A stretch of 64,000 bases of DNA. It comes from Gemmatimonadaceae bacterium. GTDB lineage: Bacteria; Gemmatimonadota; Gemmatimonadetes; Gemmatimonadales; Gemmatimonadaceae. The translations under genes were made by a program, and so were the position numbers. The stretch covers positions 47,875 through 111,874 of the forward strand of contig DATFBY010000110.1 in NCBI GenBank assembly GCA_035253585.1, in the 5' to 3' direction. Below, in pieces: positions 140-64,000 of this stretch. The notes under the pieces were generated by a model. It had not been told where the DNA came from. It saw only the letters and a program-made list of their open reading frames with translations, and did not search any database. The stretch's first letter is position 1. Every line of letters begins with the position of its first letter.

Positions 140-1762
140 TCATGACGGCAGGTTGCGTACGAGCTCGAGGTTCGCACGGATGCGGTCGTTCCCGGGGTTG
201 AGCTCCAACGCACGCTCCCAGCAGGCGACCGCCTGATCCCGGTCCTGCCACTTGTAGCGGATGTTGCCGAGCTTGAAGTACACGTCGTCGCCGAGCGACG
301 GGTTCAGCTTCACTGCTCGCAGATAGGCTTCCATCGCCTCGTCGAGCTTCCCGCCGCGATAGTAGCAGTCGCCCATGTTCTTGTGCAGCTGCGGGAGCGA
401 GCGGTCCTCCTGAAGACCGCGCTCTCCCGCGTGCACTGCTGCCTGGAGATCGCCACGGCGCTCGTGAATGACTGCCAGTGTGTTGAACAGGGGCGCCGAG
501 TGCGAGTGCACGCCGATCCCCTCGTTGATCAGCGTGAGGGCGCGCTCGTGGTCCCCGCCTAACGCCGCGGCGAGTGACGCATAGTGGAACCAGGCGGCGG
601 AGGGCGGACGCTTGCCCCACAGTGCACGCGACGAGGACAGGATCGCGTTGGCGTGCTCGACGTCGCCGACCTTGAGCGACAGGATGCCTAACGAGAGCTG
701 GACCCGCGGATCGTCTCCACCGCCGCGCTGCACCGCCTCCTCGTACGCCGCGCGCGCCTCGCCGTACCGCTGCGTACGCTCCAATGCGAAGCCAAGATTA
801 TGAAAGACGGCGGCGCGCGCTCCCTGCTGCGCGGCGGCTTGCTGGAACAGCCGCACGGCCTCTTCCCAATGGGCCGAGCGCATGGCGACGAGACCGAGGT
901 AAAACCGCGCCTGGATGTCGTGCTCGCGCAGGTCGATCACGCGGCGGAACTCGCGCGTCGCTTCCTCGAACATCCCCGTCTTGTAGAACGCCATGCCGAG
1001 GTTGCGGTGCTCTTCGACCCGCGCCTCCTTCACGACGTCCTCTTGCGGGCGCGACTTGCCAACGCGATGGAGGAAGCCGGCGGTCACCAGACCGTAGATC
1101 GCCTTGCCCACCTCGAACTCGCCCAGGCCGGACGCATCGATGAGCTGGGTCACGTCACGGTCGCCGTCGATCAGTGGAACGAGCTGCTCCTGCTCCGGCG
1201 TGAGCTTGGCGTCGCTCGCCCCGAGGCGCGCGCGGTCGAGATCGAAGATGATGTCGAAGCTGGGCAGCTTCTTCTCGATGAGCCCCCACTCGTCCACCCG
1301 ACGCGCTCCCTCCAGGAGCAGCGTCTCGGGGTTGATCGACACCAACAGGTCGCGCTCGTCAGGCATCATGTCGGCCTCGAACGAGAACGTTCCCTGCGTC
1401 CAGGTGAAGAGGTAATAGACCGCTTCCTCGATCTGCATCCGGATGTAGCGGTGCAGCTCCTCACGGGTGAGGATCTTCTTTTCCATCAGGATCTCGCCAA
1501 TGCGCTTGTCGCGCTGGCGTGATTGCACCTCGATGGCGAGGTCGAGCTCGCGGCCGGTGATCACCCCGTGCTTCACCAGCATGTCGCCCAAGCGATCGCG
1601 CCGATTCACGATCGACGCGTACGAGATCCGGCCGCGGTCGAAGTACACATAGCCGAAGTTCGAGCGGTCGGTGACGCTCAGACATCCCGTCTTCTGCCCC
1701 ATGGCCAACAGCTGGAGCACGTCGGGCAGACTGGCTTCGCGGAGACTGCCTTTGATTGCCAT
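140..1762 (-). CDS. DUF4388-like N-terminal domain + TPR-repeat protein (last gene of the che/mglA array)
   Basis: The N-terminus MAIKGSLREASLPDVLQLL…GKTGCLSV… matches the DUF4388/PATAN-like pattern. The C-terminal half has multiple TPR-like repeats. The ATG at 1762 overlaps the TAA stop of the upstream gene (TAATG). Confidence 0.6.
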   Translation of the reverse strand: MAIKGSLREASLPDVLQLLAMGQKTGCLSVTDRSNFGYVYFDRGRISYASIVNRRDRLGDMLVKHGVITGRELDLAIEVQSRQRDKRIGEILMEKKILTREELHRYIRMQIEEAVYYLFTWTQGTFSFEADMMPDERDLLVSINPETLLLEGARRVDEWGLIEKKLPSFDIIFDLDRARLGASDAKLTPEQEQLVPLIDGDRDVTQLIDASGLGEFEVGKAIYGLVTAGFLHRVGKSRPQEDVVKEARVEEHRNLGMAFYKTGMFEEATREFRRVIDLREHDIQARFYLGLVAMRSAHWEEAVRLFQQAAAQQGARAAVFHNLGFALERTQRYGEARAAYEEAVQRGGGDDPRVQLSLGILSLKVGDVEHANAILSSSRALWGKRPPSAAWFHYASLAAALGGDHERALTLINEGIGVHSHSAPLFNTLAVIHERRGDLQAAVHAGERGLQEDRSLPQLHKNMGDCYYRGGKLDEAMEAYLRAVKLNPSLGDDVYFKLGNIRYKWQDRDQAVACWERALELNPGNDRIRANLELVRNLPS

Positions 1763-3906
1763 TAGCGGAGATCCTCGATCGCGCGGCCGGCCACGTCCTG
1801 CCACTCCCAGAGGATTTTCTCGTCGGAGATGAAGAGCGGATCACCCTTGCGTGCCGCCACCAGACCTTCGGCCGCCGTGCTCGGCGTCACGCCTTCGATC
1901 TCGCGGCGGGCGAGGCCGAGCGTCAAAGGCCGCGATTGCTGCACAGCCACCGTGACCAGGCGCTGAACCATCGCCCGGATCGACGGCGCATCGAACGTCG
2001 ACGTGTCCGCGAGATAGCTGACCAGTTGCGCGTCCGCGCGAACGCCGGCGGCGTCGAGATAACGTGCGTAAAGCTTCTCGCGCAGCATCCGATCCGCCGG
2101 TTGCAGCTCCACAACCAGTCCACCCTCGAAGCGCGACCGCAGCCGCTCGGCAAGATTGGTGAGCGCCTTGGGCTCGCGGTCGCTCGACAGAATGATCTGC
2201 TTTCCCTGATCGAAGACGGCGTTGAAGACGTGGAAGAGCTCTTCCTGCGTACGCTCCGTGCCGTCACACACCTGCACGTTGTCGAGCAGCAGCGCATCTA
2301 CGCCGCGATACCGCGCGCGGAATCGCTCGATGGATCCCTGCTGGATCGCGGTGATCAAATCATTGGCAAACTCGCGGACGTCGATCACGGCGACGCGCGC
2401 GGCGCCCCCGCTCAACGACGCCAGCTCGTTGCCGATGGCGTGCAGCAGATGCGTCTTGCCGGTCCCGGCCGGCCCGTGCAAGAAGAGCGGGTTGTATCGC
2501 TTCCCCGGCTCCTCGATGACCGCGTCCGAGGCGTGCACCGCGAACTGATTGGCGGCGCTCACTTCGTACGTCGCACGCGTGAACTGCGGATCCGGCGCCG
2601 GCGGCGGCTCCAGTCCATTGATGAGGTTCTCGACAACCTCTCTCGCTTCATCGATGCGCTCGGGATCGAAGAAGAGCTCGCTCGACGCCGTGACCGGATC
2701 GACCTTCCGCGCCTCAGCGCCGAGCTCCTGGAGCTGATCGATCTTGCGTTGGAACCCGGCGAGCAGCTGATCGACACCGGGGTCACTCGGAAGCTCCAGT
2801 GCCCGCTCGAGCTCGGTGGTCTTGAATCCAAGCTCCATCCAGAACGTGACCGCCTCGCCGATGCGCATCCGCCACGGCTCGATGTTTTGCGCGACGGCCG
2901 ATGCCAGGTCGGAGACGAAGCTGTCGAACTCCTCCGTGATCGGGATGATCTCGATCTCATCGGTCTCGATCGCAAACTCGTTATGCCGAGCCGTCGTGAC
3001 CGGCGGACTCGTCGGCGGCTTTGCCCCACCGTTGCCGTGTGCCGTGCCGGTCGGCGGCGGCGCACCGACGGTCGGCGGCGATGCCGGTACGCTCGGCGGC
3101 GTCCCGACAGGCATCGGTCCATGACCGACGATCGCGGCGGTAGCCGCGGACGCGGCACGCGCGATCGCGGGCAACGAGGCCGGCGTCGGCGTGTGACGGG
3201 CGCCGAGCACGGCGATCACCTGCTCGGCGCGAATCGGCTCGTCGGTGATTGCCTGATGCGCGATCATGCGATTCAGTGCGCCCTGCAATTCGCGCACGTT
3301 CGTGTATTCGAGCTTGGCCAGCGATTCGATCACGCCCTCGCCGAACGTCACGCCGCGCTCCTCGCACTTCTTCCGGAGAATGGCCACGCGCGTCTCGTAG
3401 TCAGGCAGCCCGATGTCGACGATGAGACCGCCTGACAAGCGCGTGATCAAACGTTCGTCCAGATCGGCGATCTCGGCCGGAGGCCGATCGCTCGTGAGCA
3501 CGATCTGCTTCCCGCTCCGCTGGAGCACATTGAACAGCCGCATGAGCTCGTTCTGCGTCTCGCGGCGACCGGCGATGAACTGCACGTCGTCGAGGAGCAG
3601 CATGTCGACCGTGTAGTACCGCTCCTTGAACGTGTCCATGCGCCCGGCGGACACCGCTTCATGCAGGCCGTCCACGAACTCGTCGAGCGAGGTGAACATC
3701 ACGTGCAGATCGTGCTGCTGCTGCTTGGCGAGGTTGCCGATCGCCAGCATGAGGTGCGTCTTCCCGAGCCCCGAGCTGCTGTACATGAAGAGCGGGTTGT
3801 ACGCCGAGCCCGGCGACTGCGCCACCGCGCGCGCGGCCGCGACCGCCAAGCGATTGGCGGCACCCACCACGTAGTTCTCGAAGCGGAAGCGTGGATCGAT
3901 GTTCAC
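1762..3906 (-). CDS. Tandem double DnaA-type AAA+ ATPase protein; no DnaA domain I/II or domain IV recognisable
   Basis: Two successive DnaA domain-III-like modules are present. The first reads FENYVVGAANRLAVAAA…YNPLFMYSSSGLGKTHLMLAIGN…LLLDDVQF. The second reads ANQFAVHASDA…YNPLFLHGPAGTGKTHLLHAIGN…LLLDNVQV. No HTTV-type DNA-binding motif is present at the C-terminus. Confidence 0.65.
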   Translation of the reverse strand: MNIDPRFRFENYVVGAANRLAVAAARAVAQSPGSAYNPLFMYSSSGLGKTHLMLAIGNLAKQQQHDLHVMFTSLDEFVDGLHEAVSAGRMDTFKERYYTVDMLLLDDVQFIAGRRETQNELMRLFNVLQRSGKQIVLTSDRPPAEIADLDERLITRLSGGLIVDIGLPDYETRVAILRKKCEERGVTFGEGVIESLAKLEYTNVRELQGALNRMIAHQAITDEPIRAEQVIAVLGARHTPTPASLPAIARAASAATAAIVGHGPMPVGTPPSVPASPPTVGAPPPTGTAHGNGGAKPPTSPPVTTARHNEFAIETDEIEIIPITEEFDSFVSDLASAVAQNIEPWRMRIGEAVTFWMELGFKTTELERALELPSDPGVDQLLAGFQRKIDQLQELGAEARKVDPVTASSELFFDPERIDEAREVVENLINGLEPPPAPDPQFTRATYEVSAANQFAVHASDAVIEEPGKRYNPLFLHGPAGTGKTHLLHAIGNELASLSGGAARVAVIDVREFANDLITAIQQGSIERFRARYRGVDALLLDNVQVCDGTERTQEELFHVFNAVFDQGKQIILSSDREPKALTNLAERLRSRFEGGLVVELQPADRMLREKLYARYLDAAGVRADAQLVSYLADTSTFDAPSIRAMVQRLVTVAVQQSRPLTLGLARREIEGVTPSTAAEGLVAARKGDPLFISDEKILWEWQDVAGRAIEDLR

Positions 3907-3907
3907 G

Positions 3908-4540
3908 TCAGCGCGCGCCTCCGACCGCCATGCTCCGTGCTCCTGGCGCGCTCTGCGCGCTCAGCTTTCGAAGTACCAGTTCCGAGATGCCGCGCAGCGT
4001 CTCGAACACGCCGCGCCCACGCAGCGCGTCGGCGGTGAACGAAGGCACCTCACGGAAATTCAATGCGTCCTCCAGCTCTCCGACGCTCAGCGTCAGCTCG
4101 CGCGGGAGATCCTGCTTGTTGTATTGGAGGACGATCGGCATCGTGCGCACGTCCACTCCCTGCTCCGCGAGATTCGCGTGGAGATCCTGCATGCTCTCGA
4201 TGTTCTCCTCGAGCTGGCGCGATTGGCTGTCGGCCACGAATACCACGCCGTCGGCGCCTTGCAGCACGAGTCGACGCGTCGCCTGGTAGTAGACCTGCCC
4301 CGGGACCGTATACAACTGGAAGCGTGTGCTGAATCCCGATATCGACCCGAGATCGAGCGGGAGAAAATCGAAGAAGAGCGTGCGGTCCGTCTGGGTTGCC
4401 AGCGAGACCATCTTCCCTTTCCGGTCCTGCGGCACCTGCTCGTAAATGTAATGTAGGTTCGTCGTCTTCCCCGACCTCCCAGGGCCGTAGTAGACGATCT
4501 TACAGGTGATCTCGCGGGTCGCGTAGTTGACGAGAGACAC
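3908..4540 (-). CDS. mglA: MglA-like Ras-superfamily small GTPase
   Basis: Diagnostic MglA motifs are present: [40 protein letters not shown] and [12 protein letters not shown] start at 4540 lies 5 nt after the upstream stop. The ORF-track N-terminal extension was rejected. Confidence 0.8.
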
Positions 4541-4545
4541 TGGGC

Positions 4546-5076
4546 TCAGGCGGTTGGAGGCAGTAGCTCTTCGCTGACGCGTGACGACGGAACGGGCTCC
4601 GGTCCAAAGAGCGCCGCCAGACTTTGCTGCAGATCGTGCTCGAACTCGTCGCTCGCACCGAGAGACAGCTCTTCCGGCATCGTTGCGGGCGGCGGAGCGG
4701 CAGCCGCCAGCTGCCGCGCCAGCTCCCGAAAGTAGAACAGCACCAGTCCCGCCGAGCTTTCCGCACCGAACACGGTGAGGAACACCAGCGCGCCGCGCGG
4801 AGTGATCGTCTCCCCCAGAAAAAGCCGGCGATCGTTGTCGGCGTGAAAGAGCCGCGTGAACGGGCGACCATCCAGCTGCCGCCCCAGATGCGCCGCCGAC
4901 GCGTGGATCGCCGACGCCAGCGCACACGCCGACATCACGTCCACAGGGCTGGTGAAGCCGTACTGCGCCAGCACCTGGCCCGTCGGATGCAACAGCAGCG
5001 CGAAGGTGACTCGCGCCTCGTCCACGAACTGTCGAACGGGCGCTTCCACCCACGCCTCCGCCGCCGTCGTCCTCAC
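4546..5076 (-). CDS. Roadblock/LC7 (MglB-like) domain protein with a C-terminal tail
   Basis: The Roadblock-like core reads [16 protein letters not shown]…[27 protein letters not shown]. The GTG start overlaps the upstream stop (GTGA at 5073-5076). Confidence 0.55.
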
Positions 5077-5420
5077 GAAAGCGTCTCCGCCGCACGCAGC
5101 ATCGCCGCGCGCAGCAGCCCAATGTTCACACGCGCCTCGGCCACGGCGATGATCACCAGATCGTGGCGACCCGCCGCGCACACGTGTCCATCCGCTGCCT
5201 CCAACCGCAGGAAGCCGACGGAGCCGAGCCCGGCCGCCTGCGCCGAAAGCCGTGCTTTTCGGAAGAGCGACGCGGCCAATGCCGCGACGGCCTCGCCATG
5301 TACGCCGACCTGTAGCGTCGAGTCGATGATCAGTCCGTCGCTCTCGCCGACGACCATGCATCCGAGCACGGCGCGCTGGCGGGTGAGCGGCGCGAGCAGA
5401 TCGCGAAATAGCGTGGTCAT
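5073..5420 (-). CDS. Roadblock/LC7 domain protein (MglB-like)
   Basis: A 115-aa Roadblock fold starts [12 protein letters not shown]…[17 protein letters not shown]…. Its ATG overlaps the upstream stop (ATGA at 5417-5420). Confidence 0.6.
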
Positions 5421-6229
5421 TGCGGCGCCTCCAGCCACTGACGCGCGCGCTCCACGCATCGATCGAGTGTCCGCCTGACGAGTCCGAGTGGAATCGTCTT
5501 GGCCGCGGCCACGAGCACGAGCGACTCGCCCGCGCCGGGAGCCATCGCGACAGTCGCAACCTCGGTCTCGAACACGACGCACGACCACGCCCCGAGCTCG
5601 AGGTGTTTCGTCGCGCGCTGCGCTTCTTCACGCACGCCGCAGAGCTCGGCGCCCACTTCCTGCGCCACATCGGCCTCGTCAGGCGACAGATATGCTCCCG
5701 CCGTGACCAGTCCACTGGCATCGATCAGCAGCGCGGTTTGCTCGCCATCGCCCAGAATGTCCGCGAAGAGATGCCGTGCTTCTTCGCCAGGCGACATCGC
5801 GCGCGCGCCGTCGGTAGCCGCCGAGCTGGTCAGCATCCGCCGCACCATGGCCAGCGCGGTGGCGATCGTCGGATCCTCGCCATCGTGCGACGCCGCGGCG
5901 GTCAAATAGCGCTCGGCGTCGGATAGCCGTCCCTGTTTGAAGCAAACGTAGCCGAGTCCCTTGTGCGCGCCGACGTGCGTGGGCGACAGCGTGATCACCA
6001 TGTCCCATTCATCGAAGGCCCGATCGAGCTCTTGCTCGTCGACCCAGATGCGCGCGAGAAGGTCATGCGCTTCCGGATTGTGCGGGTGCCGCTCGAGTCC
6101 GCGCGTGGCGACGCGCAGAGCGAGATCGAGCTCGCCGCGCTTTCGCAGCGCCTCGCCCAGGGCGAGGAAAGCCAGGCTGGCGGGATCGCGAGCCAGCTCG
6201 TCGCTCAGCCGGCTGATCTCGTCAGACAT
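5417..6229 (-). CDS. TPR N-terminal + Roadblock/LC7-like C-terminal protein
   Basis: TPR-like helices are at the N-terminus. A Roadblock-like domain (…TALLIDASGLVTAGA…SCVVFETEVATVAMAPG…) is at the C-terminus. It overlaps the upstream gene by 8 nt. Confidence 0.55.
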   Translation of the reverse strand: MSDEISRLSDELARDPASLAFLALGEALRKRGELDLALRVATRGLERHPHNPEAHDLLARIWVDEQELDRAFDEWDMVITLSPTHVGAHKGLGYVCFKQGRLSDAERYLTAAASHDGEDPTIATALAMVRRMLTSSAATDGARAMSPGEEARHLFADILGDGEQTALLIDASGLVTAGAYLSPDEADVAQEVGAELCGVREEAQRATKHLELGAWSCVVFETEVATVAMAPGAGESLVLVAAAKTIPLGLVRRTLDRCVERARQWLEAPQ

Positions 6230-7373
6230 GCAGATGCTCCGTCAAATAAGTACGAAGACGCGAAGCGGTTTCCATCGCCGCGCGCACTCGCTCGGCGTCG
6301 GCCGCGTCCGGTGACATGCGGAGATAGCGGTCCCAACACGCTTCGGCTTCGGCGAAATCGCCCCGTGCCGCGGCGCAGAATCCGAGCTCCAGATGCACCG
6401 CGGCATGCGCGGCATCGAGCTGGAGCGCCCGCTTGAGCTCCGCGACGGCCTCATCGCGGAGTCCTCGCTGAAGGAGCGCGCGCGCAAGAAGCAGGTGTGC
6501 GTCGGCCGAATGCGGATCTGCTTCCACCGCCGCGCGGGCCGATGCCGTCGCGGCGTCGAGCTCGCCTCGTCGAAGCGAGATGCCAGCCTGCTCGAGGAGA
6601 GTGGCGGCGGCTTCCGACGGCGCGACGACCGGCATCTTCTGACCATTGCCGCGATCGCGGAGCTCGATGACGCCGGTGGTCGCCAACCCATACACGACCT
6701 TGCCGACATCGAACTCGCTACGGGCGAGAGCGGTGGCGATACCACGCAGATCACGCGTGCCGTCGATCTCGGTCAGAACCTCCCACTCGCTAGGCAAGAG
6801 ATCGAGCAACGTCGGGTGATCATCCTCCACATCGGCCAGCACCGGCACCATTCCGACGTGGCGGACCTTGCCTTCGATTCGCGACCACTCGTCGATGCGC
6901 CGCGCGCCTTCCATCAGCAGCGACTCGGTCGAGATGCGGATCGGTGCCTCGGAGTGGGAGCCGAGCGCGCCACCTTCCTCGAAGGAGAAATGCCCCTCGT
7001 GCCAGCTCATGAGCTCGAAGATCACTTCTTCGACCTGGAAGCGAACCTGTCGCTCGACTTCCTTCGGCGTGACCGCGCCCATGGCCACGAGAATCTCCCC
7101 GAGCCGACGCGGATCGCGATCGCGCGACTGGAGCTCGCGGGCCCTCACCAGATCGTTCTCCGTGATCTTACCGGCGCGCAGGAGCAGCCCGCCTAACGGC
7201 TGCGGGTTGTTTTTCATCGCCGCATGCACGACCGACCCGCGCTCGAAGTACACGGTGCCCTGGTTGTCCCTCATCGTCGACGTGACGGTGAGCGTTCCGG
7301 TCTTCCGGCTCAGGTCGAGCAGTTGGAAGACATCGTGGATTCCGAGCTCGCGAAGCGGTCCTTCGATCGACAT
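6222..7373 (-). CDS. DUF4388-like N-terminal domain + TPR protein (paralog of 140..1762)
   Basis: The N-terminus MSIEGPLRELGIHDVFQLLDLSRKTGTLTV and the central HEGHFSFEE…EGARRIDEW both parallel the first gene. The C-terminus has TPR-like repeats. Confidence 0.6.
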   Translation of the reverse strand: MSIEGPLRELGIHDVFQLLDLSRKTGTLTVTSTMRDNQGTVYFERGSVVHAAMKNNPQPLGGLLLRAGKITENDLVRARELQSRDRDPRRLGEILVAMGAVTPKEVERQVRFQVEEVIFELMSWHEGHFSFEEGGALGSHSEAPIRISTESLLMEGARRIDEWSRIEGKVRHVGMVPVLADVEDDHPTLLDLLPSEWEVLTEIDGTRDLRGIATALARSEFDVGKVVYGLATTGVIELRDRGNGQKMPVVAPSEAAATLLEQAGISLRRGELDAATASARAAVEADPHSADAHLLLARALLQRGLRDEAVAELKRALQLDAAHAAVHLELGFCAAARGDFAEAEACWDRYLRMSPDAADAERVRAAMETASRLRTYLTEHLHV

Positions 7374-7376
7374 GCC

Positions 7377-10088
7377 TCAGACCTCCACGCGTGGGCGGAA
7401 GATCCGCAGAAGATCGGCGGCGGTCTTCGCGTCGCGCCGCGCGCGGTGAGCGAACTCGCCATCGGGCTCCAGCTCCACGACTTCCTGCCAACGCGCGATC
7501 GCGTCGCGGTAGCGATGCCGCTCGAAGAACAGCACGCCGGCCAGATACAGCGCGCCCGTGTGCTGCGGATCGAAGCGGAGGATGCGCTGCACCGAGGTGG
7601 CGGCATCGTCGTGCCGCTCGAGCTCGATCAGCGTCTCGGTGAGCGCCACCAGGGCCTTGAGGTGATACGGATCCTGCTTGAGCAGCGAGATGAGCGGATC
7701 GAGCGCGTCGCGCGTGCGGGTGAGCTTTCGGCGCACGCTGGCGAGCTCGAGAATCGCCTCGGCGTACGTCGGTACCGCCTCCAGTGCCGCCAGCAGCGCG
7801 GTCTCCGCCTCATTGTACTGCCCCACGGTGCCTAACAAGCGGGCGAGCTCGTAGTGGACCACGGCGAAATGACGGTCGAGGTCGAGCGCGTTACGATAGG
7901 CCGAAATCGCGCCGCGAATGTCGCCGGCCGCGCGCGCGACGTCGCCCATCTGCTTGAGGACGTCGGCGCGCGCCGGCTCGAGCCGCCTGGCCCGCTCGAG
8001 CAGCTCGAGGGCACCGCGAGGGTCGCCGGCCTCGGCCCTCGCCGATGCGACCAGCAGCAGCGTCTCGACGCCTGACGAGTCGGTTTCCAGAAGCTGCTCG
8101 GCGACCGGCCGCGCTTCCTCGGCACGGCCAAGGGCGAGTAGGGCCCGCGTCTCGCCGGCCAGCGCGCGGGGCGCGATGCCGTTCATCGTTCGCGCGGTGC
8201 GATAGCGCTCCAGCGCCTCGCCATAGAGTCCCTGCCGCGCGAACGCATCGCCGAGTAGGGTGAGTCCTTCCACACGGTCAGCGCCGCGCGAAAGTGCGCG
8301 GCTGACCTCGGTGGCTGCACGCTCGAACAGGCCCTTCGACAGATAGTCCCGAGCGAGCGAGTATGGGCCAGCATCCGATGGTGGCGCGGGCTGCTGTGCC
8401 GCTGCGCTCTGCTTGAGCTGATCGAACAGATTGTCCAGAGAGCGAGGATCGAACGAAAACGCATCGACCTGCGCTTCGACACGTCGCTCCCCGGTCATGT
8501 CTGGTACGATGGCGAGCTCGAGATCCTCGTACTCGACATCGAGCGCGAGCTGAAAGCGCTGCTGCACGTAGTACGGGTCGAGCTCCAGGGCGCGCTTGGT
8601 CGCGCGGAGTGCACCCTCGAAGTCGCCGAGGTTGGAAAGGGTGAAGCTCAGGTTGTAGTGCGCTTCGGCGTAGTCGGCCTTCGCTTGGATGGCGCGTCCG
8701 AAGGCGTTGCGCGCGTCCTCGTGCTTCTTGAGCTCCACCAGCACCAGACCGACACCGTTCCACGCCACGGGATGCTCGCCCTCGATCGCCAGCGCCTGAC
8801 GATACGCCTCGAGCGCCAAGTGCAGGCGCTTCCCCCGAAACAAGAGCAACGCCAGGTTGAGCCACGCCTTGATGAAAGTGCCGTGCGCTGCGATGGCGGC
8901 GCGGAACTCGTCGATCGCGTCCTCCGTCTCGCCTGCGTGGTAGAGCGCGACGCCGAGGTTGTTGCGCGCGATGGCGTAGTCGTCGTCGAGCGCCAGCGCC
9001 TTCTTGTAGCTGTCGACCGCGTCGGCGATACGGCCCGTCTGGTGCATCGCGACCCCGAGCTCGCACCAGAGCTTCGGGCTCCCGCTCTGCTTCTGCAGCA
9101 CGCGCTGGTAGAGGTCGATCGCCTGCCCCGCGTCGCGCGTGAGCAGGTGCACCTCTGCCATCGCCTGCATCACGAGCGCGTGATCTTCGCCACGCTCGAG
9201 CGCCAGCTTGTACTCGCGCAGCGCCTCGCTGTAGTAGCCCTTCTGCCGGAATGCGAGACCGAGGTTGTAGTGCGCCAGCTGCTTGTCGTCGGCGACCTCG
9301 AGGCGCGCCGAGCGGCGCTCCTGGCGCTCGGGCAGCATCTCCTGGAAGCGCGAGCTGTTGTAGCGGTCGAGCGAGAGATTCGTCTGAGCGCGAGACAGCG
9401 AGGGGTTGAGCTCGATGGCGCGTCGCGTCGCTACCCGCGCTTCTTCGTGCCGTCCAGCATCGCCTAACACGAAGCCCATCAGGTAGTGGGCATCGGCGTT
9501 GTCCGGATTCAGCTGGATCGACTTCTTCAGTGCCGCGAGCGCGTCATCGTTGAGCCCGCGATTGTACAGCACTTCGCCGATGTAGAAGTGTAAGAGTGAG
9601 CTCTCCGGCTCCAGCTTCTTGGCGCGCTCGAACCAGCGTTGCGCGCGATCGAGATCGCCGCTGGCCTTCTCGGCGAGTCCGAGCTGCACGATCGACGCGA
9701 CGTCCTTGGCGTGGTACTTCAGGAGCTCCGTGAATTCGGCGATCGCTTCCTTGCTGTCGCCCAGCGTCGCATATGCCCGCCCCAGCTCCCAACGCGCCGC
9801 GCGGTTCGAGGGATCGAGTCGAAGACGCTCCTTGAGCTCGGTAACCCGGCGCTCGTAGTAACCCGTGTTGAAGTACGCAATCTCCAGATTGCGCTGTGCC
9901 ACTTCCATCTTCGGGTCGATCTCGAGGGCGCGGGTGAACGCGCCCACCGCTTCCTCGTACAGCCCCTTGTTGTAATAGAGGACGCCGAGGTTGTTGTGCG
10001 CCCCCGCGTCCGACGAATCGATCCGCCGGGCGAACGAGCGCAAGATCGAGCGATCGCGCTCCGAAGTTGGGGACGCCTGCATGATCAC
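7377..10088 (-). CDS. Large TPR-repeat protein (903 aa)
   Basis: Dozens of canonical 34-aa TPR units (…AHYNLG…AL.LDP…) run along the entire length. A GTG start follows 1 nt after the cheC stop. Confidence 0.7.
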   Translation of the reverse strand: MIMQASPTSERDRSILRSFARRIDSSDAGAHNNLGVLYYNKGLYEEAVGAFTRALEIDPKMEVAQRNLEIAYFNTGYYERRVTELKERLRLDPSNRAARWELGRAYATLGDSKEAIAEFTELLKYHAKDVASIVQLGLAEKASGDLDRAQRWFERAKKLEPESSLLHFYIGEVLYNRGLNDDALAALKKSIQLNPDNADAHYLMGFVLGDAGRHEEARVATRRAIELNPSLSRAQTNLSLDRYNSSRFQEMLPERQERRSARLEVADDKQLAHYNLGLAFRQKGYYSEALREYKLALERGEDHALVMQAMAEVHLLTRDAGQAIDLYQRVLQKQSGSPKLWCELGVAMHQTGRIADAVDSYKKALALDDDYAIARNNLGVALYHAGETEDAIDEFRAAIAAHGTFIKAWLNLALLLFRGKRLHLALEAYRQALAIEGEHPVAWNGVGLVLVELKKHEDARNAFGRAIQAKADYAEAHYNLSFTLSNLGDFEGALRATKRALELDPYYVQQRFQLALDVEYEDLELAIVPDMTGERRVEAQVDAFSFDPRSLDNLFDQLKQSAAAQQPAPPSDAGPYSLARDYLSKGLFERAATEVSRALSRGADRVEGLTLLGDAFARQGLYGEALERYRTARTMNGIAPRALAGETRALLALGRAEEARPVAEQLLETDSSGVETLLLVASARAEAGDPRGALELLERARRLEPARADVLKQMGDVARAAGDIRGAISAYRNALDLDRHFAVVHYELARLLGTVGQYNEAETALLAALEAVPTYAEAILELASVRRKLTRTRDALDPLISLLKQDPYHLKALVALTETLIELERHDDAATSVQRILRFDPQHTGALYLAGVLFFERHRYRDAIARWQEVVELEPDGEFAHRARRDAKTAADLLRIFRPRVEV

Positions 10089-12307: not shown

Positions 12308-12317
12308 GGGATTCCTT

Positions 12318-12406
12318 CGAGATTCGAGATTCGAGATTCGTGACGGCGGATATGGAGCTCGTTAGGTGTGCCGTTACGAATCTCGAATCTCGAATCTCGA
12401 ATCTCG
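12318..12406. repeat. Inverted tandem-heptamer hairpin element, (CGAGATT)3…(CGAATCT)4, intergenic between cheA and cheY
   Basis: Read directly. The two arms are exact inverse complements. The spacer contains ctcgttaggtg, a variant of the octamer. Confidence 0.85.
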
Positions 12407-24317: not shown

Positions 24318-24365
24318 CGGGCGGGCGAGCGGGAGCGCCCGCTCCCGAATGCGCCAGACGATCAT

Positions 24366-24461
24366 CGAGATTCGAGATTCGAGATTCGAGATTCGGAAGG
24401 GCACACCGCACGAGGTCCGAATCCGCAGTCCCGAATCTCGAATCTCGAATCTCGAATCTCG
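24366..24461. repeat. Inverted tandem-heptamer hairpin element, (CGAGATT)4…(CGAATCT)4, intergenic between ftsH and folP
   Basis: Read directly. It begins about 3 nt after the ftsH stop codon and has a 36-nt spacer. Confidence 0.85.
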
Positions 24462-42678: not shown

Positions 42679-42687
42679 GAAAGCTCG

Positions 42688-49735: not shown

Positions 49736-49739
49736 CTCG

Positions 49740-55087: not shown

Positions 55088-55110
55088 ACTCGTTAGGCAC
55101 CGGGCAAACG

Positions 55111-55957: not shown

Positions 55958-56009
55958 CCGACTCGTTAGGCAGCCGGGTTGGCGACGGCGTGCACGCGTG
56001 GTCATTGTG

Positions 56010-56780: not shown

Positions 56781-56958
56781 CGACTACTAGCAACACGGAG
56801 GGCAAATAGGCCAGTCGTCAGGCCCTTTACATATATGGCATCCGCATTTATCGGGCACAATGCGCCTGGGACCGGCGCCCGGTCGCGCGGGACATCCAGA
56901 CCGTGTAACACCGTCAGCGCCCATCCGCTGGGACGTCTCGTCCCAGCGCACGCTATCC

Positions 56959-59442
56959 CTATTTGTCGAAGCCCTTTGGGGCGAATGTCAGCGTGAAGAG
57001 ATAGCTCTCTTCGCCACGTTCCGACTTGGGGAAGATCCAATTTCGGACACGCTCGCGCACGCAGCTTTCGACCTTGGTTGCGGTCTTTCCAGCCATCTGG
57101 CGTTTGGTGATGGCAGCCGAGTGGACGCGGCCGGTGATGCCGACCTTCGTAGAAACCGTGAGCGATCCGGCGAGCTTCGGCTCGATTGCCAGTCCGTCGA
57201 GATAACACAGCTCGAACTGGAGGCGCTGCCCCTTCAGGAATTCGCGCACCTGATCAGGGTCCTTCGTCGCCACTCGAACGCGCTCGGCTTCCTCGCTGAG
57301 TGGAGCCGGCCGGTTCTCGAACCGAATCGAGTCGACCGGAATCGCGGAGCCCGGTGCCTCGCCGCGCTCTTTCCGTGATTTCTCGTAGGCGCGCATTGCG
57401 AGCGTGATGAAGTCTTCCGCTTCCCGAACCTTGTGCTCGTTGGCGCTGTCGCGCGCCGCTCGCTGCGCCGCCGCACGGTCGGCTGCCGCCTTCTCGGCCG
57501 CCGCTTTTTCCGCCGCTGCACGCTCCGCTGCGGCCTTCTCCGCCGCCGCCCTCTCTGCTGCCAATCTCTCGCGCTCGGCCTTCTCGGCCGCGGCCCTCTC
57601 TGCTGCCAATCTCTCGCGCTCCGCCTTCTCGGCCGCGGCGCGTTCCGCGGCAATTCGCTCCCGCTCGGCTCTCTCCGCAGCGGCTCGCTCGGCTGCCAGT
57701 CGCTCGCGCTCCGCTTTCTCGGCGGCGGCGCGTTCGGCCGCCAGCTTCTCCGCGGCTGCCTTCTCGGCTGCTAGACGTTCGCGCTCTGCCTTCTCGGCGG
57801 CTGCTCGCTCCGCGGCGAGGCGTTCTCGTTCGGCGCGCTCGGCGGCAGCCTTCTCCGCCGCGGCTTTCAATGCGGCAGCTCGCTCCGCGACACGTCGCTC
57901 GGCATCGGCCTTTTCCGCGGCGGCTTTCTCGGCCGCGGCACGTTCCGCTGCCGCTCTCTCTGCCGCGGCACGCTCGGCTCTTGCTTTCTCCGCGGCGGCT
58001 CGCTCCGCGGCGGCCTTTTCCGCGGCGGCCTTTTCCGCTGCCGCTCTCTCCGCCGCGGCTCTCTCCGCTGCGGCTTTTTCTGCGGCACGCTTCTCAGACG
58101 CAAGGCGCTCAGCTTCCGCTCTCTCGGCCGCGAGCCGCTCGCGTTCAGCCTTTTCAGTCGCGGCGCGCTCGGCGGCAGCTTTCTCGGCGGCCAACTTCTC
58201 GGCTGCTGCTCTCTCGGCGGCCGCTTTCACCGCCGCGGCCTTCTCCGCGGCGATCCGTTGCGATTCGGCTCTTTCCGCCGCAGCCCGTTCGGCGGCGGCT
58301 CGCTCCGATGCCGCTCTTTCGGACGCCGCGCGTTCAGCCGCCGCGCGTTCAGCCGCCGCGCGTTCAGCCGCCGCGCGTTCAGCCGCCGCGCGTTCAGTCG
58401 CCGCGCGTTCAGTCGCCGCGCGCTCCGATGCCGCCTTCTCCGCCAGAGCCTTCTCCGCCGCCGCTCTCTCCGCTGCGGCCCTCTCTGAGCGAGCGCGCTC
58501 TACCGCCGCACGCTCCGCCGCCGCGCGCTCCGCCGCGAGCTTCTGCCGCTCACGCTCGAGCGCCGCTCGTTCCGCTGCGATCTTTTCTTCGGCGGCCCTC
58601 GCCGCGGCCAGACGCTCTTCCGCCGCCCGCGCGGCAGCGGTCCGCTCCGCCGCCTCTTTTTCCCTCGCCGCGCGTTCCGTTGATTCGAGCGTCGTGCTCG
58701 CCGTCGAGCGCTCCCGCGGCGCCGCTTGCGCGGGCTGGGCCGCCTGACGAGCGCTCGGCCGCTCCGCGGTGCCAGTAGCAGCGGAAGGCGCCGGCGCGCG
58801 CTCTTCGGGCGTCAGCATCGCCACGCGTTGCTCGGCGGGACCATTAGCGCTCGGCGCGGTGCGCGCCGACGCCACTGTCCGCGAAGGCGACGTCATCTCC
58901 CGAGTTCGGTTCGCCGCCTGCGCCAGGGCCGGGAGCAGCTCGCCGATGGACATCTCCGGCACTCGAACGACGAGCCCCTCGTTTCCCGCACCGATCCTGA
59001 TGATCAATCCAGGATAGTCACCCTCCGTGTACAGCTCGAAGATCACGGCATCGCTCGAGAGCCCCGCGGTACGCAGCGTCGGCTCGGCGCGCCCCATGAC
59101 CCGACGCCGTGGCCGACCGAGGATCGTGTTGGCGGAGTCGATCCACGCCAGCAGCGAGAACGCGTCGAGAGTTTTCGGTTTGGTGAAGGCGTCACGGTAG
59201 CCGGGCGACGCGAACAACTGTACCATCCCGTTGTTGGTCGCTCGCACCCAAACCGTCGCCGCTCCAAACTGAAAGGAGCCGGTCTCCTCGAACCGCGTCT
59301 GCGCCGTCAGGGGCGCCGCGTGAACGGCCAGAGCACCGATCGCGGCGAGTAGGGGTAGTGAGAGTACCGGCGTAAATGCCGTTCTGACCTGGGCGAGACG
59401 CACGACGACAAGACTCCAAAAGTGGGGGTCTCTCTCCTCCAT
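56959..59442 (-). CDS. Secreted ~830-aa protein with a ~400-aa (A-A-E-R/K-A)n low-complexity tract and a conserved C-terminal domain
   Basis: Signal peptide present. The tract is encoded partly by perfect 15-bp tandem repeats. Confidence 0.5.
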   Translation of the reverse strand: MEERDPHFWSLVVVRLAQVRTAFTPVLSLPLLAAIGALAVHAAPLTAQTRFEETGSFQFGAATVWVRATNNGMVQLFASPGYRDAFTKPKTLDAFSLLAWIDSANTILGRPRRRVMGRAEPTLRTAGLSSDAVIFELYTEGDYPGLIIRIGAGNEGLVVRVPEMSIGELLPALAQAANRTREMTSPSRTVASARTAPSANGPAEQRVAMLTPEERAPAPSAATGTAERPSARQAAQPAQAAPRERSTASTTLESTERAAREKEAAERTAAARAAEERLAAARAAEEKIAAERAALERERQKLAAERAAAERAAVERARSERAAAERAAAEKALAEKAASERAATERAATERAAAERAAAERAAAERAAAERAASERAASERAAAERAAAERAESQRIAAEKAAAVKAAAERAAAEKLAAEKAAAERAATEKAERERLAAERAEAERLASEKRAAEKAAAERAAAERAAAEKAAAEKAAAERAAAEKARAERAAAERAAAERAAAEKAAAEKADAERRVAERAAALKAAAEKAAAERAERERLAAERAAAEKAERERLAAEKAAAEKLAAERAAAEKAERERLAAERAAAERAERERIAAERAAAEKAERERLAAERAAAEKAERERLAAERAAAEKAAAERAAAEKAAAEKAAADRAAAQRAARDSANEHKVREAEDFITLAMRAYEKSRKERGEAPGSAIPVDSIRFENRPAPLSEEAERVRVATKDPDQVREFLKGQRLQFELCYLDGLAIEPKLAGSLTVSTKVGITGRVHSAAITKRQMAGKTATKVESCVRERVRNWIFPKSERGEESYLFTLTFAPKGFDK
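58322..58426. repeat. About 7 tandem copies of the 15-bp unit GCCGCCGCGCGTTCA (encodes ERAAA on the minus strand)
   Basis: Read directly. Confidence 0.85.
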
Positions 59443-59922: not shown

Positions 59923-61302
59923 TCAGGCGCGCGGGATTGCGGATGCCATGGGTCGCACCGCGCTCACTGGCGGCAGGGATGCGATCACGCGATCCAGGTG
60001 GTGCATGTAGGCCTCGTACTGCACCGATATCGCGTGACGGGGTGACCTCAGGTACCGGACGCCGCCCGACAGATTAGGCGACTGTCGTATTAAACTCTCC
60101 AGCTTCCGCGCACCGACTCCGTTCGCTTCTCGCGCACGGATCGCCCGCGCGACGAGCTCCGCCTGGCGGCTGATCACCGGGTACGCTCCACCGTCGGTCT
60201 CGAAGAGACCAAGAACGTAAAGATTCGAGTGCCGCCGATGCAGAACGCCGCTGGCCAGATCCGCCATGGGAGACGTCGCCGAGATGATGCCGTCGTCCAG
60301 GAATGGGAAGGCGAGCTGGTAGCCGATCGCCCAGATGATGACGTCCACCTCGACCTCGCTGCCATCGACGAACCGCACTCGCTTCCCCTGGAGCTCCGCG
60401 ACGTCGGGCTTGGCGGTGATGTCGCCGTGCGCGAGATAGTGGAGCAGCTGCGAGTTCACGATCGGATGGCTTTCCAGCACCTTGTGATCGGGTCGCTGCA
60501 GTCCCAGGCGCGAGAGATCTCCCACGAACACCCGAAGCAGGACGGTGAGCAGCGGCTGCGCCAGCCACGTCGGCAGCTCAGGTCCGCTTCGAAAAAAGAG
60601 GTCCGTCGGCTTGCCGAAGATGTGTTTCGGAAGGAAGTAGTAGCCGCGCCGAAGGCTGATCCATGCCTGACGAGCGTTGGCCGCCGCATCACACGCGATG
60701 TCGCACCCGGAGTTCCCTCCCCCGACGATGAGCACGCGCTTTTCACGCAGCTGATTGGCGCTACGGTAGTGAAACGAGTGGTACGCTTCGCCGTCGAAAG
60801 TACCCCGATATCCGGGCGTGCGCGGCATCCACTGATGACCCGCGGCGATTATCAATCCGCGGTATCGTCTGGTTTCGCCTGACGAGAGTCGCACGTCCCA
60901 GCCTGCGTCGCTTGGCGTCGCGCGCTCGACCTCGATGCCGAGCTCGATGTGTCGGCGCAGGTCGTGCTCCACGGCGAAGGATCGCAGGTAGTGGAGTATC
61001 TGTCGCCACCCGGGATAATCCGGATACGACTCGGGCATCGGGAAGTTGGAGAATGCCGACTGCGTCTTGGACGAGATGAAGTGCGCGGACTCGTACATCG
61101 GCGTGCGACCGCTGTCGCCGTTCCAGATCCCGCCAACGTCGTGCTGCCGCTCGATGACGTCGAATGGGATTCCCGCTTGCTTGAGTGCGCGAGCGGCTCC
61201 CAGCCCCGAGGGACCCGCGCCGATGATGCAAAACCTCTCGCATCGGTCGCCGTGCTCGACTTCCGGCTGCTGCTGCGGTGTGCGTAGCTCTGGCGTCGTC
61301 AT
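59923..61302 (-). CDS. Flavin-containing monooxygenase-like FAD/NAD(P)-binding oxidoreductase
   Basis: GAGPSGL dinucleotide fold. A second GGGNSG motif is present. Confidence 0.75.
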   Translation of the reverse strand: MTTPELRTPQQQPEVEHGDRCERFCIIGAGPSGLGAARALKQAGIPFDVIERQHDVGGIWNGDSGRTPMYESAHFISSKTQSAFSNFPMPESYPDYPGWRQILHYLRSFAVEHDLRRHIELGIEVERATPSDAGWDVRLSSGETRRYRGLIIAAGHQWMPRTPGYRGTFDGEAYHSFHYRSANQLREKRVLIVGGGNSGCDIACDAAANARQAWISLRRGYYFLPKHIFGKPTDLFFRSGPELPTWLAQPLLTVLLRVFVGDLSRLGLQRPDHKVLESHPIVNSQLLHYLAHGDITAKPDVAELQGKRVRFVDGSEVEVDVIIWAIGYQLAFPFLDDGIISATSPMADLASGVLHRRHSNLYVLGLFETDGGAYPVISRQAELVARAIRAREANGVGARKLESLIRQSPNLSGGVRYLRSPRHAISVQYEAYMHHLDRVIASLPPVSAVRPMASAIPRA

Positions 61303-62213: not shown

Positions 62214-62969
62214 TCAGCGCCTGCCAACCCTGAAGTGCAGCGGCCACCGCACCAGCCGCTCCGAATCGCGAGCGCCCCACGTGCTCGCGATTCGTGCGAT
62301 GAAGGGCGCGATCGGATCGGCGTCGTTCTTCTTGAGATACCGCCGCGTCGCCGACCAGGTGTAGAGATATCCCTCGAAGTCGCCTAACGACATCGTCCGC
62401 TCGATCGACAGCTCGGGGGCGGGCAGCTCACGGAACGGAAACTCGAGATTCCGGTACCCTTCGTCCACCATCCGGCGCTCCGCCGGCCAGTACTCGCCGA
62501 GGACGCCGCGGTAGAGCTCGTGAAGGGCGTCGTCGAGATCGGCGCCGATCGAGCAGAGACCGTATCCCCACACCGCTACCGCGCCTCCCGGTGCCATGAC
62601 GCGCGCCGCCTCGGTGAAGAATGCGGTTGGGTCGAGCCAATGCATCGACTGCGCGACAGTCACCAGGTCGGCAGCACCGTCGGGTAACCCACTCACCTCC
62701 CCGGGAGCCACCCGATACTCGATGCGCGGGTGGGGCATCGCATTCGCGATCTGGGCGGCGCTGGCATCGGTGGCCAGCACACGGTCATAGCGCTCCGCCA
62801 AGCCGATCGCCGCCTGCCCATTCCCCGTGGCGCTGTCCCACGCCAGCGCGTGCCCCGCGCTCAGCCCCGTCACGAAGTCGAAGAGCGCCGGCGGGTACGT
62901 CGGCCGAAACTCGGCGTACTCCCGAGCATGACCCGAAAAGTGATCCTTGAAGTCGGTCATGCCTAACAA
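62214..62969 (-). CDS. Class I SAM-dependent methyltransferase
   Basis: Methyltransf_11/25-like motifs (…LAWDSATGNGQAA…VLATDAS…). Confidence 0.7.
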   Translation of the reverse strand: MLGMTDFKDHFSGHAREYAEFRPTYPPALFDFVTGLSAGHALAWDSATGNGQAAIGLAERYDRVLATDASAAQIANAMPHPRIEYRVAPGEVSGLPDGAADLVTVAQSMHWLDPTAFFTEAARVMAPGGAVAVWGYGLCSIGADLDDALHELYRGVLGEYWPAERRMVDEGYRNLEFPFRELPAPELSIERTMSLGDFEGYLYTWSATRRYLKKNDADPIAPFIARIASTWGARDSERLVRWPLHFRVGRR

Positions 62970-63002
62970 TGCCTGACGAGTGCCTGACTTGGGAGACTTC
63001 TC

Positions 63003-63599
63003 CTAACGGGCTCCGCTCGACTGGCGGCGCGCGAAGAAGCCGGGATAGCCGCGCGACTCGAGCGTGCCCGTGATCCCCCAATGTGGTACGTAGCGCGCTC
63101 GAACCTCGGCGACGGGGCGCAGCATGGCCTCTCGTGATCCGGCAGTCGACTCCAACAGATACTGCACATCCTGCTGACTGAAGAGCACCCAGACGTGCGA
63201 GATCGTCTTGCCGTCGTCTCTTAGCACCTCCCCGGTGACGAGCTCCGCGTCGAAGCCCATCTCGACCAGCTTCCGCCACGCCCAGATCGCATGATCTTCA
63301 CAGTCTCCCTTCCGCACCTGCTCGAAGGTACGCGGATGCTGCCAGAAGTCGCTCTCGTGAAAGAGGTCGCGGTCGCGGATGTATTCGCACGCGAGAAGCC
63401 AGTCACACATCTCGTCAACCGAGCTCACGCTCACCGCGCTCTCACCCTCGAAATACCAGCGAAAATCGCGAACGGCTCCGGCGCCGAATCGCTGTAGCGG
63501 AACTCGCTGCGGCACGGGCGCCCAGAGGTCCGCGGGCGGCTTGTCCTTCCGGCGGATGATTCGAGCGAAAAGCCTGCGAAGCCCTTGGATCAGTCTCAC
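63003..63599 (-). CDS. Transglutaminase-like cysteine-protease-fold protein
   Basis: The catalytic Cys context GDCEDHAIWAWRKL is present. A GTG start gives a GTGA overlap with the DinB-family gene. Confidence 0.5.
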   Translation of the reverse strand: MRLIQGLRRLFARIIRRKDKPPADLWAPVPQRVPLQRFGAGAVRDFRWYFEGESAVSVSSVDEMCDWLLACEYIRDRDLFHESDFWQHPRTFEQVRKGDCEDHAIWAWRKLVEMGFDAELVTGEVLRDDGKTISHVWVLFSQQDVQYLLESTAGSREAMLRPVAEVRARYVPHWGITGTLESRGYPGFFARRQSSGAR

Positions 63600-63928
63600 C
63601 GCTGGCTGCGAGCGTGCACTTCTTCCTCGGTAAGCCCGTAGAGCGGCGGAGTCTTCACCCCGAGCATGGATAGCATGAGGTAGAGCTGCCCGCGGTGGTG
63701 CACCTCGTGCTCGATCATCGACCGGAGCCACTTCCATGTCGTGATCGGCGTGCCAGCCGGCGTGCTGCACTTTCTCTCGAGATCGTCGCGCGTCAACGCG
63801 CGAAGCATGGGCAGGGACTCTTCGTGCATGCGGTCGAGATATTCGAGCACCGCATCGCGTCCTTCGGCCAGCTCACGCCCATGTCCCGGATATCGGCTGG
63901 GGCGGCCGCTGACATTCTCGGCGAACAT
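63596..63928 (-). CDS. DinB/YfiT-family metal-dependent protein
   Basis: DinB_2-like His motifs are in EHEVHHRGQL. Confidence 0.55.
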   Translation of the reverse strand: MFAENVSGRPSRYPGHGRELAEGRDAVLEYLDRMHEESLPMLRALTRDDLERKCSTPAGTPITTWKWLRSMIEHEVHHRGQLYLMLSMLGVKTPPLYGLTEEEVHARSQR

Positions 63929-64000
63929 CCACCGCTCGATTGCGCCCAGGTGCCTAACGATGTCGCCGAGGGTGAAGGCGCCGGGACGGTGCGTCCATTC

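Follow-up and report, generated by a model that had tools for sequence, protein, structure and literature searches.

Why does one short, asymmetric DNA word recur dozens of times among ordinary housekeeping genes? The question is raised by a 64-kb stretch of DNA from a Gemmatimonadaceae bacterium (GenBank assembly GCA_035253585.1, contig DATFBY010000110.1, positions 47,875 to 111,874; hereafter the window), in which the octamer GCCTAACG has 26 exact matches, 19 on the plus strand and 7 on the minus strand. This is the count that an earlier note on the same DNA had given, and all but three of its coordinates hold as well; the copies it placed at 22891, 40565 and 62383 begin at 22890, 40566 and 62382. 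We estimated the chance expectation in two ways: (i) 100 dinucleotide-preserving shuffles of the window gave a mean of 1.05 copies (sd 1.0, maximum 5); and (ii) a Markov-3 model fitted to the window, a comparison that the earlier note had proposed, gave 0.91. The note's own estimate of 2-3 copies was therefore slightly high, and the enrichment is stronger than it had claimed, at 25-30-fold for GCCTAACG and 75-230-fold for the 9- and 10-mers of the motif. In a de novo k-mer scan of the window, the word and its extensions headed the ranking at each length from k = 6 to k = 10; TGCCTAACGA, for instance, has 9 copies against 0.04 expected. The evidence strongly supports a force that acts at the DNA level and keeps the word dense, and we tentatively read the word as a signal resembling those used in DNA uptake.

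The word is precise, with tolerance at only a few positions. A one-mismatch neighbor that had been overlooked, GCCTGACG (the G variant, which differs from the A form GCCTAACG at position 5), contributes 26 more copies to the window and is equally enriched. Its density in motif-free relatives is only about one eighth of that in the window, and we therefore consider it part of the same phenomenon. Taken together as GCCTRACG, the two forms have 52 copies versus 6.4 expected. Among the 27 single-base neighbors of GCCTAACGA (19 copies), only GCCTGACGA (24 copies versus 1.0 expected) matches its abundance, and a few variants at the 3' end of the core show mild enrichment. Within the 9-mer core, tolerance is thus confined to position 5 (A/G) and the two 3' positions, and the rest is essentially invariant. 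The base 5' of GCCTAACG is a pyrimidine in 26/26 copies and the base 3' of it is A in 19/26, in agreement with what the earlier note had described. A position matrix of the window copies yields the consensus YGCCTRACGAG. GCCTRACG is not its own reverse complement, and its flanks also have a direction, since Y precedes it and AG follows.

Past about 11 bases, the flanks of the copies are unrelated, which identifies a dispersed short word rather than a repeat element; the single dispersed repeat family that the earlier note had named as the finding that would undo its proposal is not what the window holds. A long repeat or a miniature element (of the repetitive extragenic palindrome or miniature inverted-repeat transposable element type) was ruled out by the random flanks, the mostly intragenic placement and the lack of excess folding energy. 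Stems flanking the word were only marginally over background (p = 0.02), and the folding energy around it was no different. The spacing of copies is random-like (coefficient of variation 0.83-1.09), without the even spacing of uptake signal sequences (USS) that we looked for, at a density of 0.4-0.8 copies per kb; here and below, no density is based on a stretch longer than 64 kb. The longest stretch free of GCCTRACG (22898-29305, 6.4 kb, spanning the diadenylate cyclase, FtsH, HPRT and TilS region) is the only sizeable gap and is compatible with chance (P ~0.3). Paired inverted copies at terminators, for which the earlier note had suggested a search, are not a feature of this word: inverted pairs are nearly absent, amounting to a single overlapping one in the window and, in a further locus (L326), three that are convergent or divergent.

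Approximately 88% of copies lie within ordinary core genes, including those for isoleucyl-tRNA synthetase (IleRS), CheA, isocitrate lyase, malate synthase, transporters and ergothioneine synthesis. One frame in each orientation is blocked by a stop codon (TAA in the word, TAG in its complement), and the window copies use all four of the remaining orientation/frame classes, in keeping with the several reading frames noticed earlier. Some copies even supply stop codons (e.g., 49738-49745), and others fill 5-10 bp gene spacers. We defined a synonymous opportunity as a position where a change of synonymous codons would suffice to write the exact A-form word without altering the protein. The word occupies 27% of opportunities in [SPTA]-Leu-Gly (xCG-TTA-GGC), 50% in x-Pro-Asn-[VADEG] (CCT-AAC-G), 12% in x-Val-Arg-[LPHQR] (GTT-AGG-C) and 14% in [RC]-Leu-Thr (CTA-ACG), and the G variant occupies 10-63% in its own peptide classes. 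The codons that the word needs (TTA, AGG, CCT and CTA) are among the rarest in the window genes. Half of the TTA codons in these genes (14/28) lie in the motif, fewer than the "nearly all" of the earlier note. The same occupancy pattern was found in three syntenic relatives, 19 unrelated metagenome contigs and two Verrucomicrobiota loci. Occupancy in every allowed frame and orientation despite the rare codons points to selection or drive on the DNA word. The earlier proposal that selection acts on the word and not on the protein is thereby strongly supported, with synonymous occupancy of 10-60% in all permitted frames and orientations, and it is also backed by synonymous multi-step turnover between orthologues, described below.

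The excess of plus-strand copies, to which the earlier note had given weight, has a simpler origin. For the A form, the window offers 92 antisense opportunities versus 20 sense ones, and 84% of its coding DNA is on the minus strand. These numbers predict that approximately 80% of coding copies fall on the plus strand, and 19/24 do. Peptide availability and the placement of 84% of genes on one strand thus account for the 19:7 bias. In a pool of seven loci picked without regard to the motif, the word filled 25/125 opportunities (20.0%) on the majority-gene strand versus 56/270 (20.7%) on the other, and intergenic copies were split 14:10 by strand. The three intergenic exact copies of the window are all on the minus strand, opposite to the coding majority, and Verrucomicrobiota loci are balanced (14:14, 9:9 and 11:6). 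There is no GC skew switch within the window. With the leading strand inferred from gene majority and the sign of the GC skew, and within that limit, replication-linked polarity is absent. This lack of polarity after correction for coding argues against signals of the Chi or KOPS (FtsK-orienting polar sequences) kind, and leaves the Chi-like alternative of the earlier note unsupported.

Comparison of orthologous sites in relatives showed that individual positions are not fixed. Between the window and L002, a locus at about 72% nucleotide identity, 1 of about 20 sites is common, and at several sites the same Leu-Gly is written CTG-GGC or CTT-GGC in one and TTA-GGC in the other. Between the window and L081 (82% nucleotide identity), 9/18 window sites are retained, versus about 20% expected for a neutral 8-mer; three of these nine differ solely by A/G at position 5. 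Finally, where the motif-bearing locus L083 is compared with its motif-free sister L082, orthologous 7-mers differ at a mean of 2.9 positions versus 1.7 expected from divergence. These comparisons indicate that sites outlast neutral sequence while the determinant is present, and that they are made or erased by several coordinated substitutions.

How widely is the word distributed? Our conclusions on this point rest on loci fetched through proteins, since metagenome and viral contigs selected for a motif pair have inflated densities. By its IleRS, the window belongs to Gemmatimonadaceae. A protein search with this IleRS returned a 100% match on an 18-kb ENA contig, one 82% relative, and then none above 70%; among the species representatives of the genome collection, the best reaches 64% identity. 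The 82% relative, L081, carries 3 A-form and 9 G-form copies. L083 (IleRS 68% identical to the window) carries 17 GCCTAACG and 23 CGCCTAAC in 23 kb, and its sister L082 (76% IleRS identity) only 2 copies. L002, on a deep branch of Gemmatimonadaceae, has 6 copies in 13.7 kb; L009, a deep-branching Gemmatimonadetes metagenome-assembled genome (GC 0.57), has 1 in 19 kb; and other Gemmatimonadota (L001, L003-L008, L010, L011 and L013) have none. The word is therefore patchy on the IleRS tree, being present in the window, L081, L083 and L002 and not in L082, L010 or L001. A scan of motif-free Gemmatimonadaceae found no replacement hyper-abundant word. One candidate, ACCCCGAC in L007, was rejected as a local cluster; its 11 copies, in both orientations within 300 bp (292-592), form a separate small repeat region of this motif-free locus. 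"Gemmatimonadetes bacterium T265" (GCA_019973575.1) has 7 copies in 22 kb versus 0.55 expected.

A metagenome scan for two copies 50-80 bp apart returned approximately 25 contigs (GC 0.56-0.75) with many more dispersed copies. We considered whether those of GC 0.75 represent a third phylum and rejected this, as their taxonomy is Gemmatimonadaceae. The contigs of GC 0.56 belong to Chthoniobacterales (Verrucomicrobiota). Four Chthoniobacterales loci of 21 kb each, fetched via a menaquinone-biosynthesis gene and hence not selected for the motif, contain 17, 28, 18 and 7 copies, and the word is among the most enriched 8-mers in all four (in L329 as the overlapping CCTAACGA). Their extended consensus, GCCTAACGAG(T/A) or GCCTAACGAA, includes the same 10-mer as the window. 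Across relatives, loci not selected for the motif reach 17-28 copies per 21-23 kb. Each lineage has its own dialect: YGCCTRACGAG in the window, CGCCTAAC in L083, YGCCTAACG[GC] in L002, mostly the G variant in L081, and GCCTAACGAG/GAA in Chthoniobacterales; the differences fall in the flanks and at position 5. Three IMG/VR contigs (GC 0.66-0.69), selected for the motif pair, combine dispersed copies with phage proteins (terminase and DNA polymerase in L110, terminase in L085, tail and tape-measure proteins in L117). The word is found in independent MEGAHIT, SPAdes and long-read assemblies from NCBI, ENA, JGI and Logan, and a PilQ secretin is encoded on one motif-rich contig.

Three loci in this material are worth noting. 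The motif-rich L206 (Gemmatimonadaceae-like, GC 0.75) encodes a type I restriction-modification system at 3150-9972, with HsdR and an HsdM-like methylase, and has motif copies within hsdR. L233 (JGI10216J12902_106184151, a metagenome contig of GC 0.65) holds 16 GCCTAACG copies in 3 kb (1-2960), eight per strand and by far the densest seen, embedded in odd low-complexity sequence rich in TAG, CGT and GCG. L307 has an intergenic array at 2021-2260 of approximately 21-bp units, each with GGCCTAACGGC or its complement in alternating orientation, which is a local tandem cluster.

Among known systems, the closest are the DNA uptake sequences (DUS) of Neisseriaceae (AT-GCCGTCTGAA and its dialects) and the USS of Pasteurellaceae (AAGTGCGGT / ACAAGCGGT), short words of which a genome holds hundreds to thousands. 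Like these, the word is non-palindromic, 9-12 bp long and present at about one copy per 1-2.5 kb; it sits in coding DNA in several frames, limited by the peptides able to encode it; it occurs in both orientations with no replication-linked strand polarity; it has lineage-specific dialects whose positions turn over while density is kept; and one-off variants are also enriched at tolerant positions. The likeness to DUS and USS drawn by the earlier note therefore stands for density, length, multi-frame coding placement and dialects, but not for strand bias. Unlike DUS and USS, GCCTRACG is found in two phyla, has a patchy and not a family-wide distribution within a family, is rare in terminators and inverted pairs, uses rare codons, and occurs on phage contigs. 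The cyanobacterial highly iterated palindrome HIP1 (GCGATCGC) likewise has a core of eight bases, recurs about once per kb within genes in every frame, and is strongly enriched over every composition model. However, HIP1 is a palindrome of one phylum, whereas this word is asymmetric, with an A/G wobble and directional flanks, and spans Gemmatimonadota and Verrucomicrobiota. Chi sites (5-8-mers, e.g., GCTGGTGG of E. coli RecBCD) are also asymmetric, over-represented and mostly intragenic, but they are co-oriented with replication and few-fold enriched, whereas the word is without polarity after coding correction and 25-200-fold enriched. KOPS and the architecture imparting sequences (AIMS) share with it an over-represented octamer throughout genes; their extreme skew (over 80%, switching at the terminus) contrasts with the absence here of any skew beyond coding constraints.

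We tentatively favor, with a confidence just short of even, the reading that YGCCTRACGAG is a DNA-uptake-signal-like word held by molecular drive, whose specificity factor has been gained, lost or transferred. This reading draws on the length, asymmetry and density of the word, its multi-frame placement by peptide availability, its indifference to orientation, its dialects and turnover, and its confined tolerance. We infer that the recognizing factor would be an uptake receptor and transformation the drive. A sequence-specific DNA receptor of natural transformation, most plausibly a type IV pilus component, would bind double-stranded fragments bearing the word; such fragments would be preferentially taken up and then recombined into the chromosome, and mutations that create or improve the word would spread by molecular drive wherever the encoded protein tolerates them. 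A specificity factor that differs between lineages would produce the dialects, and its gain, loss or horizontal transfer could produce the patchiness and the same word in two phyla. In Neisseria, ComP is a dedicated DNA-uptake receptor. The density, length and coding behavior published for USS and DUS agree with this word (PMC2817400). Thinner support comes from the PilQ secretin on the motif-rich contig noted above and from a reported link of ComEC loci to recombination in abundant soil bacteria, these phyla included (PMC7305173).

Several observations weigh against an uptake signal. Known DUS and USS are each restricted to one family and vertically inherited, whereas here two phyla share one and the same 10-mer, which has a patchy occurrence among close relatives. 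About half of the copies of known DUS and USS, and >90% of their inverted pairs, are in terminators (bioRxiv 10.1101/2025.10.24.684340); this word is about 88% coding and scarce in terminators, with hardly any inverted pairs. It also forces rare codons. Phage contigs (with terminase, tape-measure and DNA polymerase genes) carry it at host-like density, albeit having been selected for the motif pair, and such copies are not directly predicted by uptake drive. A transferable factor acting on any intracellular DNA explains the two-phylum, patchy spread and the phage copies equally well or better. It is possible, if rather doubtful, that a compact mobile determinant imposes one 10-11 bp word on some Gemmatimonadaceae, on Chthoniobacterales and on their phages, making a cross-phylum "DNA dialect community". 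The determinant could then be either a DNA-uptake receptor or a novel self-marking or self-recognition system; members would preferentially exchange or spare each other's DNA, and phages would copy the mark.

The phage copies and the patchy distribution also bear on other explanations. A sequence-specific conversion drive within the cell, as proposed for HIP1, would have a mobile enzyme pair convert near-cognate sequence to the word on any replicating DNA, by means of a DNA methyltransferase with a mismatch-specific nicking or repair nuclease, or of a nickase provoking short-patch gene conversion. It fits the word on phage contigs, the patchiness among sisters (L083 with the word and L082 without it, at 76% IleRS identity), the absence of a replacement word in motif-free relatives and the accelerated multi-step change at motif positions. 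The same 10-mer in two phyla would suit a compact transferable determinant, and an asymmetric word with an R wobble looks like a possible Type IIG/III-style recognition site. We nevertheless judge it unlikely, given that the enrichment known from very-short-patch repair is modest (less than about 2-fold for CCWGG in E. coli) rather than 30-200-fold for an asymmetric 10-mer, and that no methyltransferase or nuclease gene acting on DNA and linked to the motif was found in the window. The readable window genes are all housekeeping or metabolic (chemotaxis, IleRS, FtsH, the glyoxylate shunt, ergothioneine synthesis and transporters), and no competence, pilus, restriction-modification or RecBCD gene is among them.

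An improbable alternative is a Chi-like signal or "self" marker read by RecBCD/AddAB or a defense nuclease, by which own DNA would be protected or repaired and motif-poor DNA degraded, with the recognition subunit exchanged horizontally. The 8-mer core is indeed asymmetric, horizontal shuffling of RecBCD/AddAB is documented, and phage contigs at host-like density would be expected if phages profit from mimicking self. The strand data given above speak against it, from occupancy without coding-independent polarity (20.0% versus 20.7%; intergenic 14:10) to the three intergenic exact window copies that oppose the coding-majority strand and the balanced Verrucomicrobiota counts. So do an enrichment of the order of ten-fold above known Chi sites and a patchy occurrence among close relatives that all presumably repair double-strand breaks. 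We consider it very improbable that selection acts on each copy separately to provide dense binding sites for an abundant nucleoid-associated or chromosome-organizing protein, as with KOPS, AIMS or Noc. An orientation-independent double-stranded word spread evenly and at random through core genes would suit such a protein, but FtsK- and SpoIIIE-type guides require the strong skew that is absent here, positions turn over fast, and sister lineages manage without the word or a substitute. There is a negligible chance that the word arises from codon or amino-acid usage, from a dispersed repeat family or from assembly artefacts. The sole point in favor is the first impression of many copies encoding Leu-Gly, whereas the copies use the rarest codons, four frame classes and intergenic DNA, have unrelated flanks, appear in independent assemblies by several assemblers and databases, and are missing from relatives of equal GC content with the same proteins.

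The individual copies illustrate the range of contexts (flanking bases in lower case). A-form copies on the plus strand, antisense to genes, read GCG-TTA-GGC (ALG) as cGCCTAACGcc at 557-564 (in the minus-strand open reading frame, ORF, 140-1804) and tGCCTAACGcg at 21673-21680, 22021-22028 (G variant in L081) and 41292-41299. They read TCG-TTA-GGC (SLG) as tGCCTAACGag at 686-693 (also in ORF 140-1804) and 22890-22897 (common to L081), cGCCTAACGag at 11180-11187 (in the CheA ORF; common to L081, CTG-GGC in L002) and 51252-51259, cGCCTAACGac at 21097-21104 and 62382-62389, cGCCTAACGat at 40566-40573, and tGCCTAACGat at 50382-50389. CCG-TTA-GGC (PLG) is formed by cGCCTAACGgc at 7191-7198, the sole site also in L002, and cGCCTAACGgg at 32853-32860; GTT-AGG (VR) is formed by cGCCTAACGat at 17614-17621 (in IleRS; L081 has the G variant at the same place) and 45592-45599, cGCCTAACGag at 34400-34407 (in the isocitrate lyase ORF), and tGCCTAACGat at 63952-63959. 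Sense copies read CCT-AAC-GAG (PNE) in tGCCTAACGag at 16963-16970 (minus, in IleRS) and cGCCTAACGag at 39628-39635 (plus, in a plus-strand gene), CGC-CTA-ACG (RLT) in cGCCTAACGct at 14603-14610 (minus, in the LspA ORF), and TGC-CTA-ACG in tGCCTAACGag at 55964-55971 (minus). Outside these frames, minus-strand copies lie in a 9-bp spacer between two plus-strand genes (cGCCTAACGac, 29306-29313) and between convergent genes (tGCCTAACGag at 49738-49745, its TAA being the stop codon of the minus-strand ORF 49740-51320, and at 55091-55098, intergenic). The overlapping inverted pair GCCTGACTCGTTAGGC (41697-41712; GCCTGAC on the plus strand, GCCTAACG on the minus) falls exactly at the overlap of two genes.

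The G variant is found in sense as CCT-GAC-GAG (PDE) in tGCCTGACGag at 1357-1364 (in ORF 140-1804) and 11473-11480 and cGCCTGACGag at 5677-5684, all minus; as CCT-GAC-GAC in tGCCTGACGac at 21528-21535 (minus) and 29685-29692 (plus, in a plus-strand gene) and cGCCTGACGac at 51871-51878 (minus); as CCT-GAC-GCG in cGCCTGACGcg at 39274-39281 (plus); as CGC-CTG-ACG in cGCCTGACGag at 34913-34920 (minus) and cGCCTGACGat at 49125-49132 (plus); and as AGC-CTG-ACG (SLT) in aGCCTGACGag at 11759-11766 (minus). Antisense copies on the plus strand give GTC-AGG (VR) at 5473-5480 (cGCCTGACGag), 19326-19333 (tGCCTGACGac, common to L081) and 43377-43384 (aGCCTGACGag); CGT-CAG-GCG (RQA) at 8794-8801 (cGCCTGACGat, common to L081), 36225-36232 and 58742-58749 (both cGCCTGACGag); CGT-CAG-GCA at 21800-21807 (common to L081) and 60665-60672 (both tGCCTGACGag); and TCG-TCA-GGC (SSG) at 8070-8077 and 60877-60884 (both cGCCTGACGag). 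The last frame recurs in cGCCTGACGag at 38370-38377, on the minus strand and antisense in a plus-strand gene, as is aGCCTGACGtc at 29832-29839 (minus). Two copies are intergenic (tGCCTGACGac at 31131-31138, plus; gGCCTGACGac at 56816-56823, minus), and cGCCTGACGag at 42686-42693 (minus) is at a gene boundary. Three adjacent copies or variants, TGCCTAACAA-TGCCTGACGAG-TGCCTGACTT, occupy an intergenic spacer at 62961-62990 (plus).

One-off variants include GCCTAACA on the plus strand at 7830-7837, 9462-9469, 18757-18764 and 32330-32337 and on the minus strand at 39768-39775. Of the sites listed for it earlier, 9462, 32330 and 62961 are correct, 7831 and 18767 shift to 7830 and 18757, and the minus-strand copy is additional. 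Others are CCCTAACGAG at 15170-15177 (minus, at the 3' end of IleRS), TCCTAACGG at 63001-63008 (plus) and ACCTAACGAG at 12360-12367 (minus), which lies in the loop of a long hairpin element (12316-12404). This is the first of three near-perfect long hairpins, the others being at 16815-16906 and 24363-24463. Each has stems of approximately 30 bp, with four tandem heptamers (GAGATTC)x4 paired with (GAATCTC)x4, and loops of 20-35 nt, no two of them alike. The folding energy of the hairpins as single-stranded DNA is -37 to -42 kcal/mol (z about -9). One lies in frame within the IleRS ORF and is absent from the L002 and L081 orthologues, and the other two are intergenic; the IleRS is 1131 aa in the window and in the 100%-identical ENA protein (P0001), and 1109 aa in L081 (P0002). 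No further copy of the long hairpin was found in the 327 loci compared. Pfam assigns two stretches of the 714-aa product of the minus-strand ORF 1762-3906 to Bac_DnaA-type ATPase domains (E = 1e-109) and gives no match to the DnaA C-terminal DNA-binding domain, an unusual architecture for a DnaA relative.

A full-text literature search for the word and its extended forms, and for uptake sequences in either Gemmatimonadetes or Verrucomicrobia, returned nothing relevant. Neisseriaceae and Pasteurellaceae are host-associated families of Proteobacteria. As of 2025, a survey gives uptake sequences for these two families only (bioRxiv 10.1101/2025.10.24.684340). The same genomic signature is now seen in two soil phyla that rank among the most abundant and the least cultivated; what could set it apart from another hyper-abundant word at the DNA level is that two phyla share it. 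In practice, the word can also serve as a marker with which to bin sequences and to assign phages to hosts. Were a dialect community real, it would be a new kind of genome-wide signal and not merely a third family with uptake sequences. If the word is not an uptake signal, some mechanism rewrites up to half of the compatible codon positions in core genes at a rare-codon cost, an outcome equally interesting for genome evolution. If it is an uptake mark, natural transformation in soil would become directly testable, and Gemmatimonadota and Verrucomicrobiota could be manipulated genetically with the help of the word, which would also indicate a favored route by which genes pass between the two phyla.

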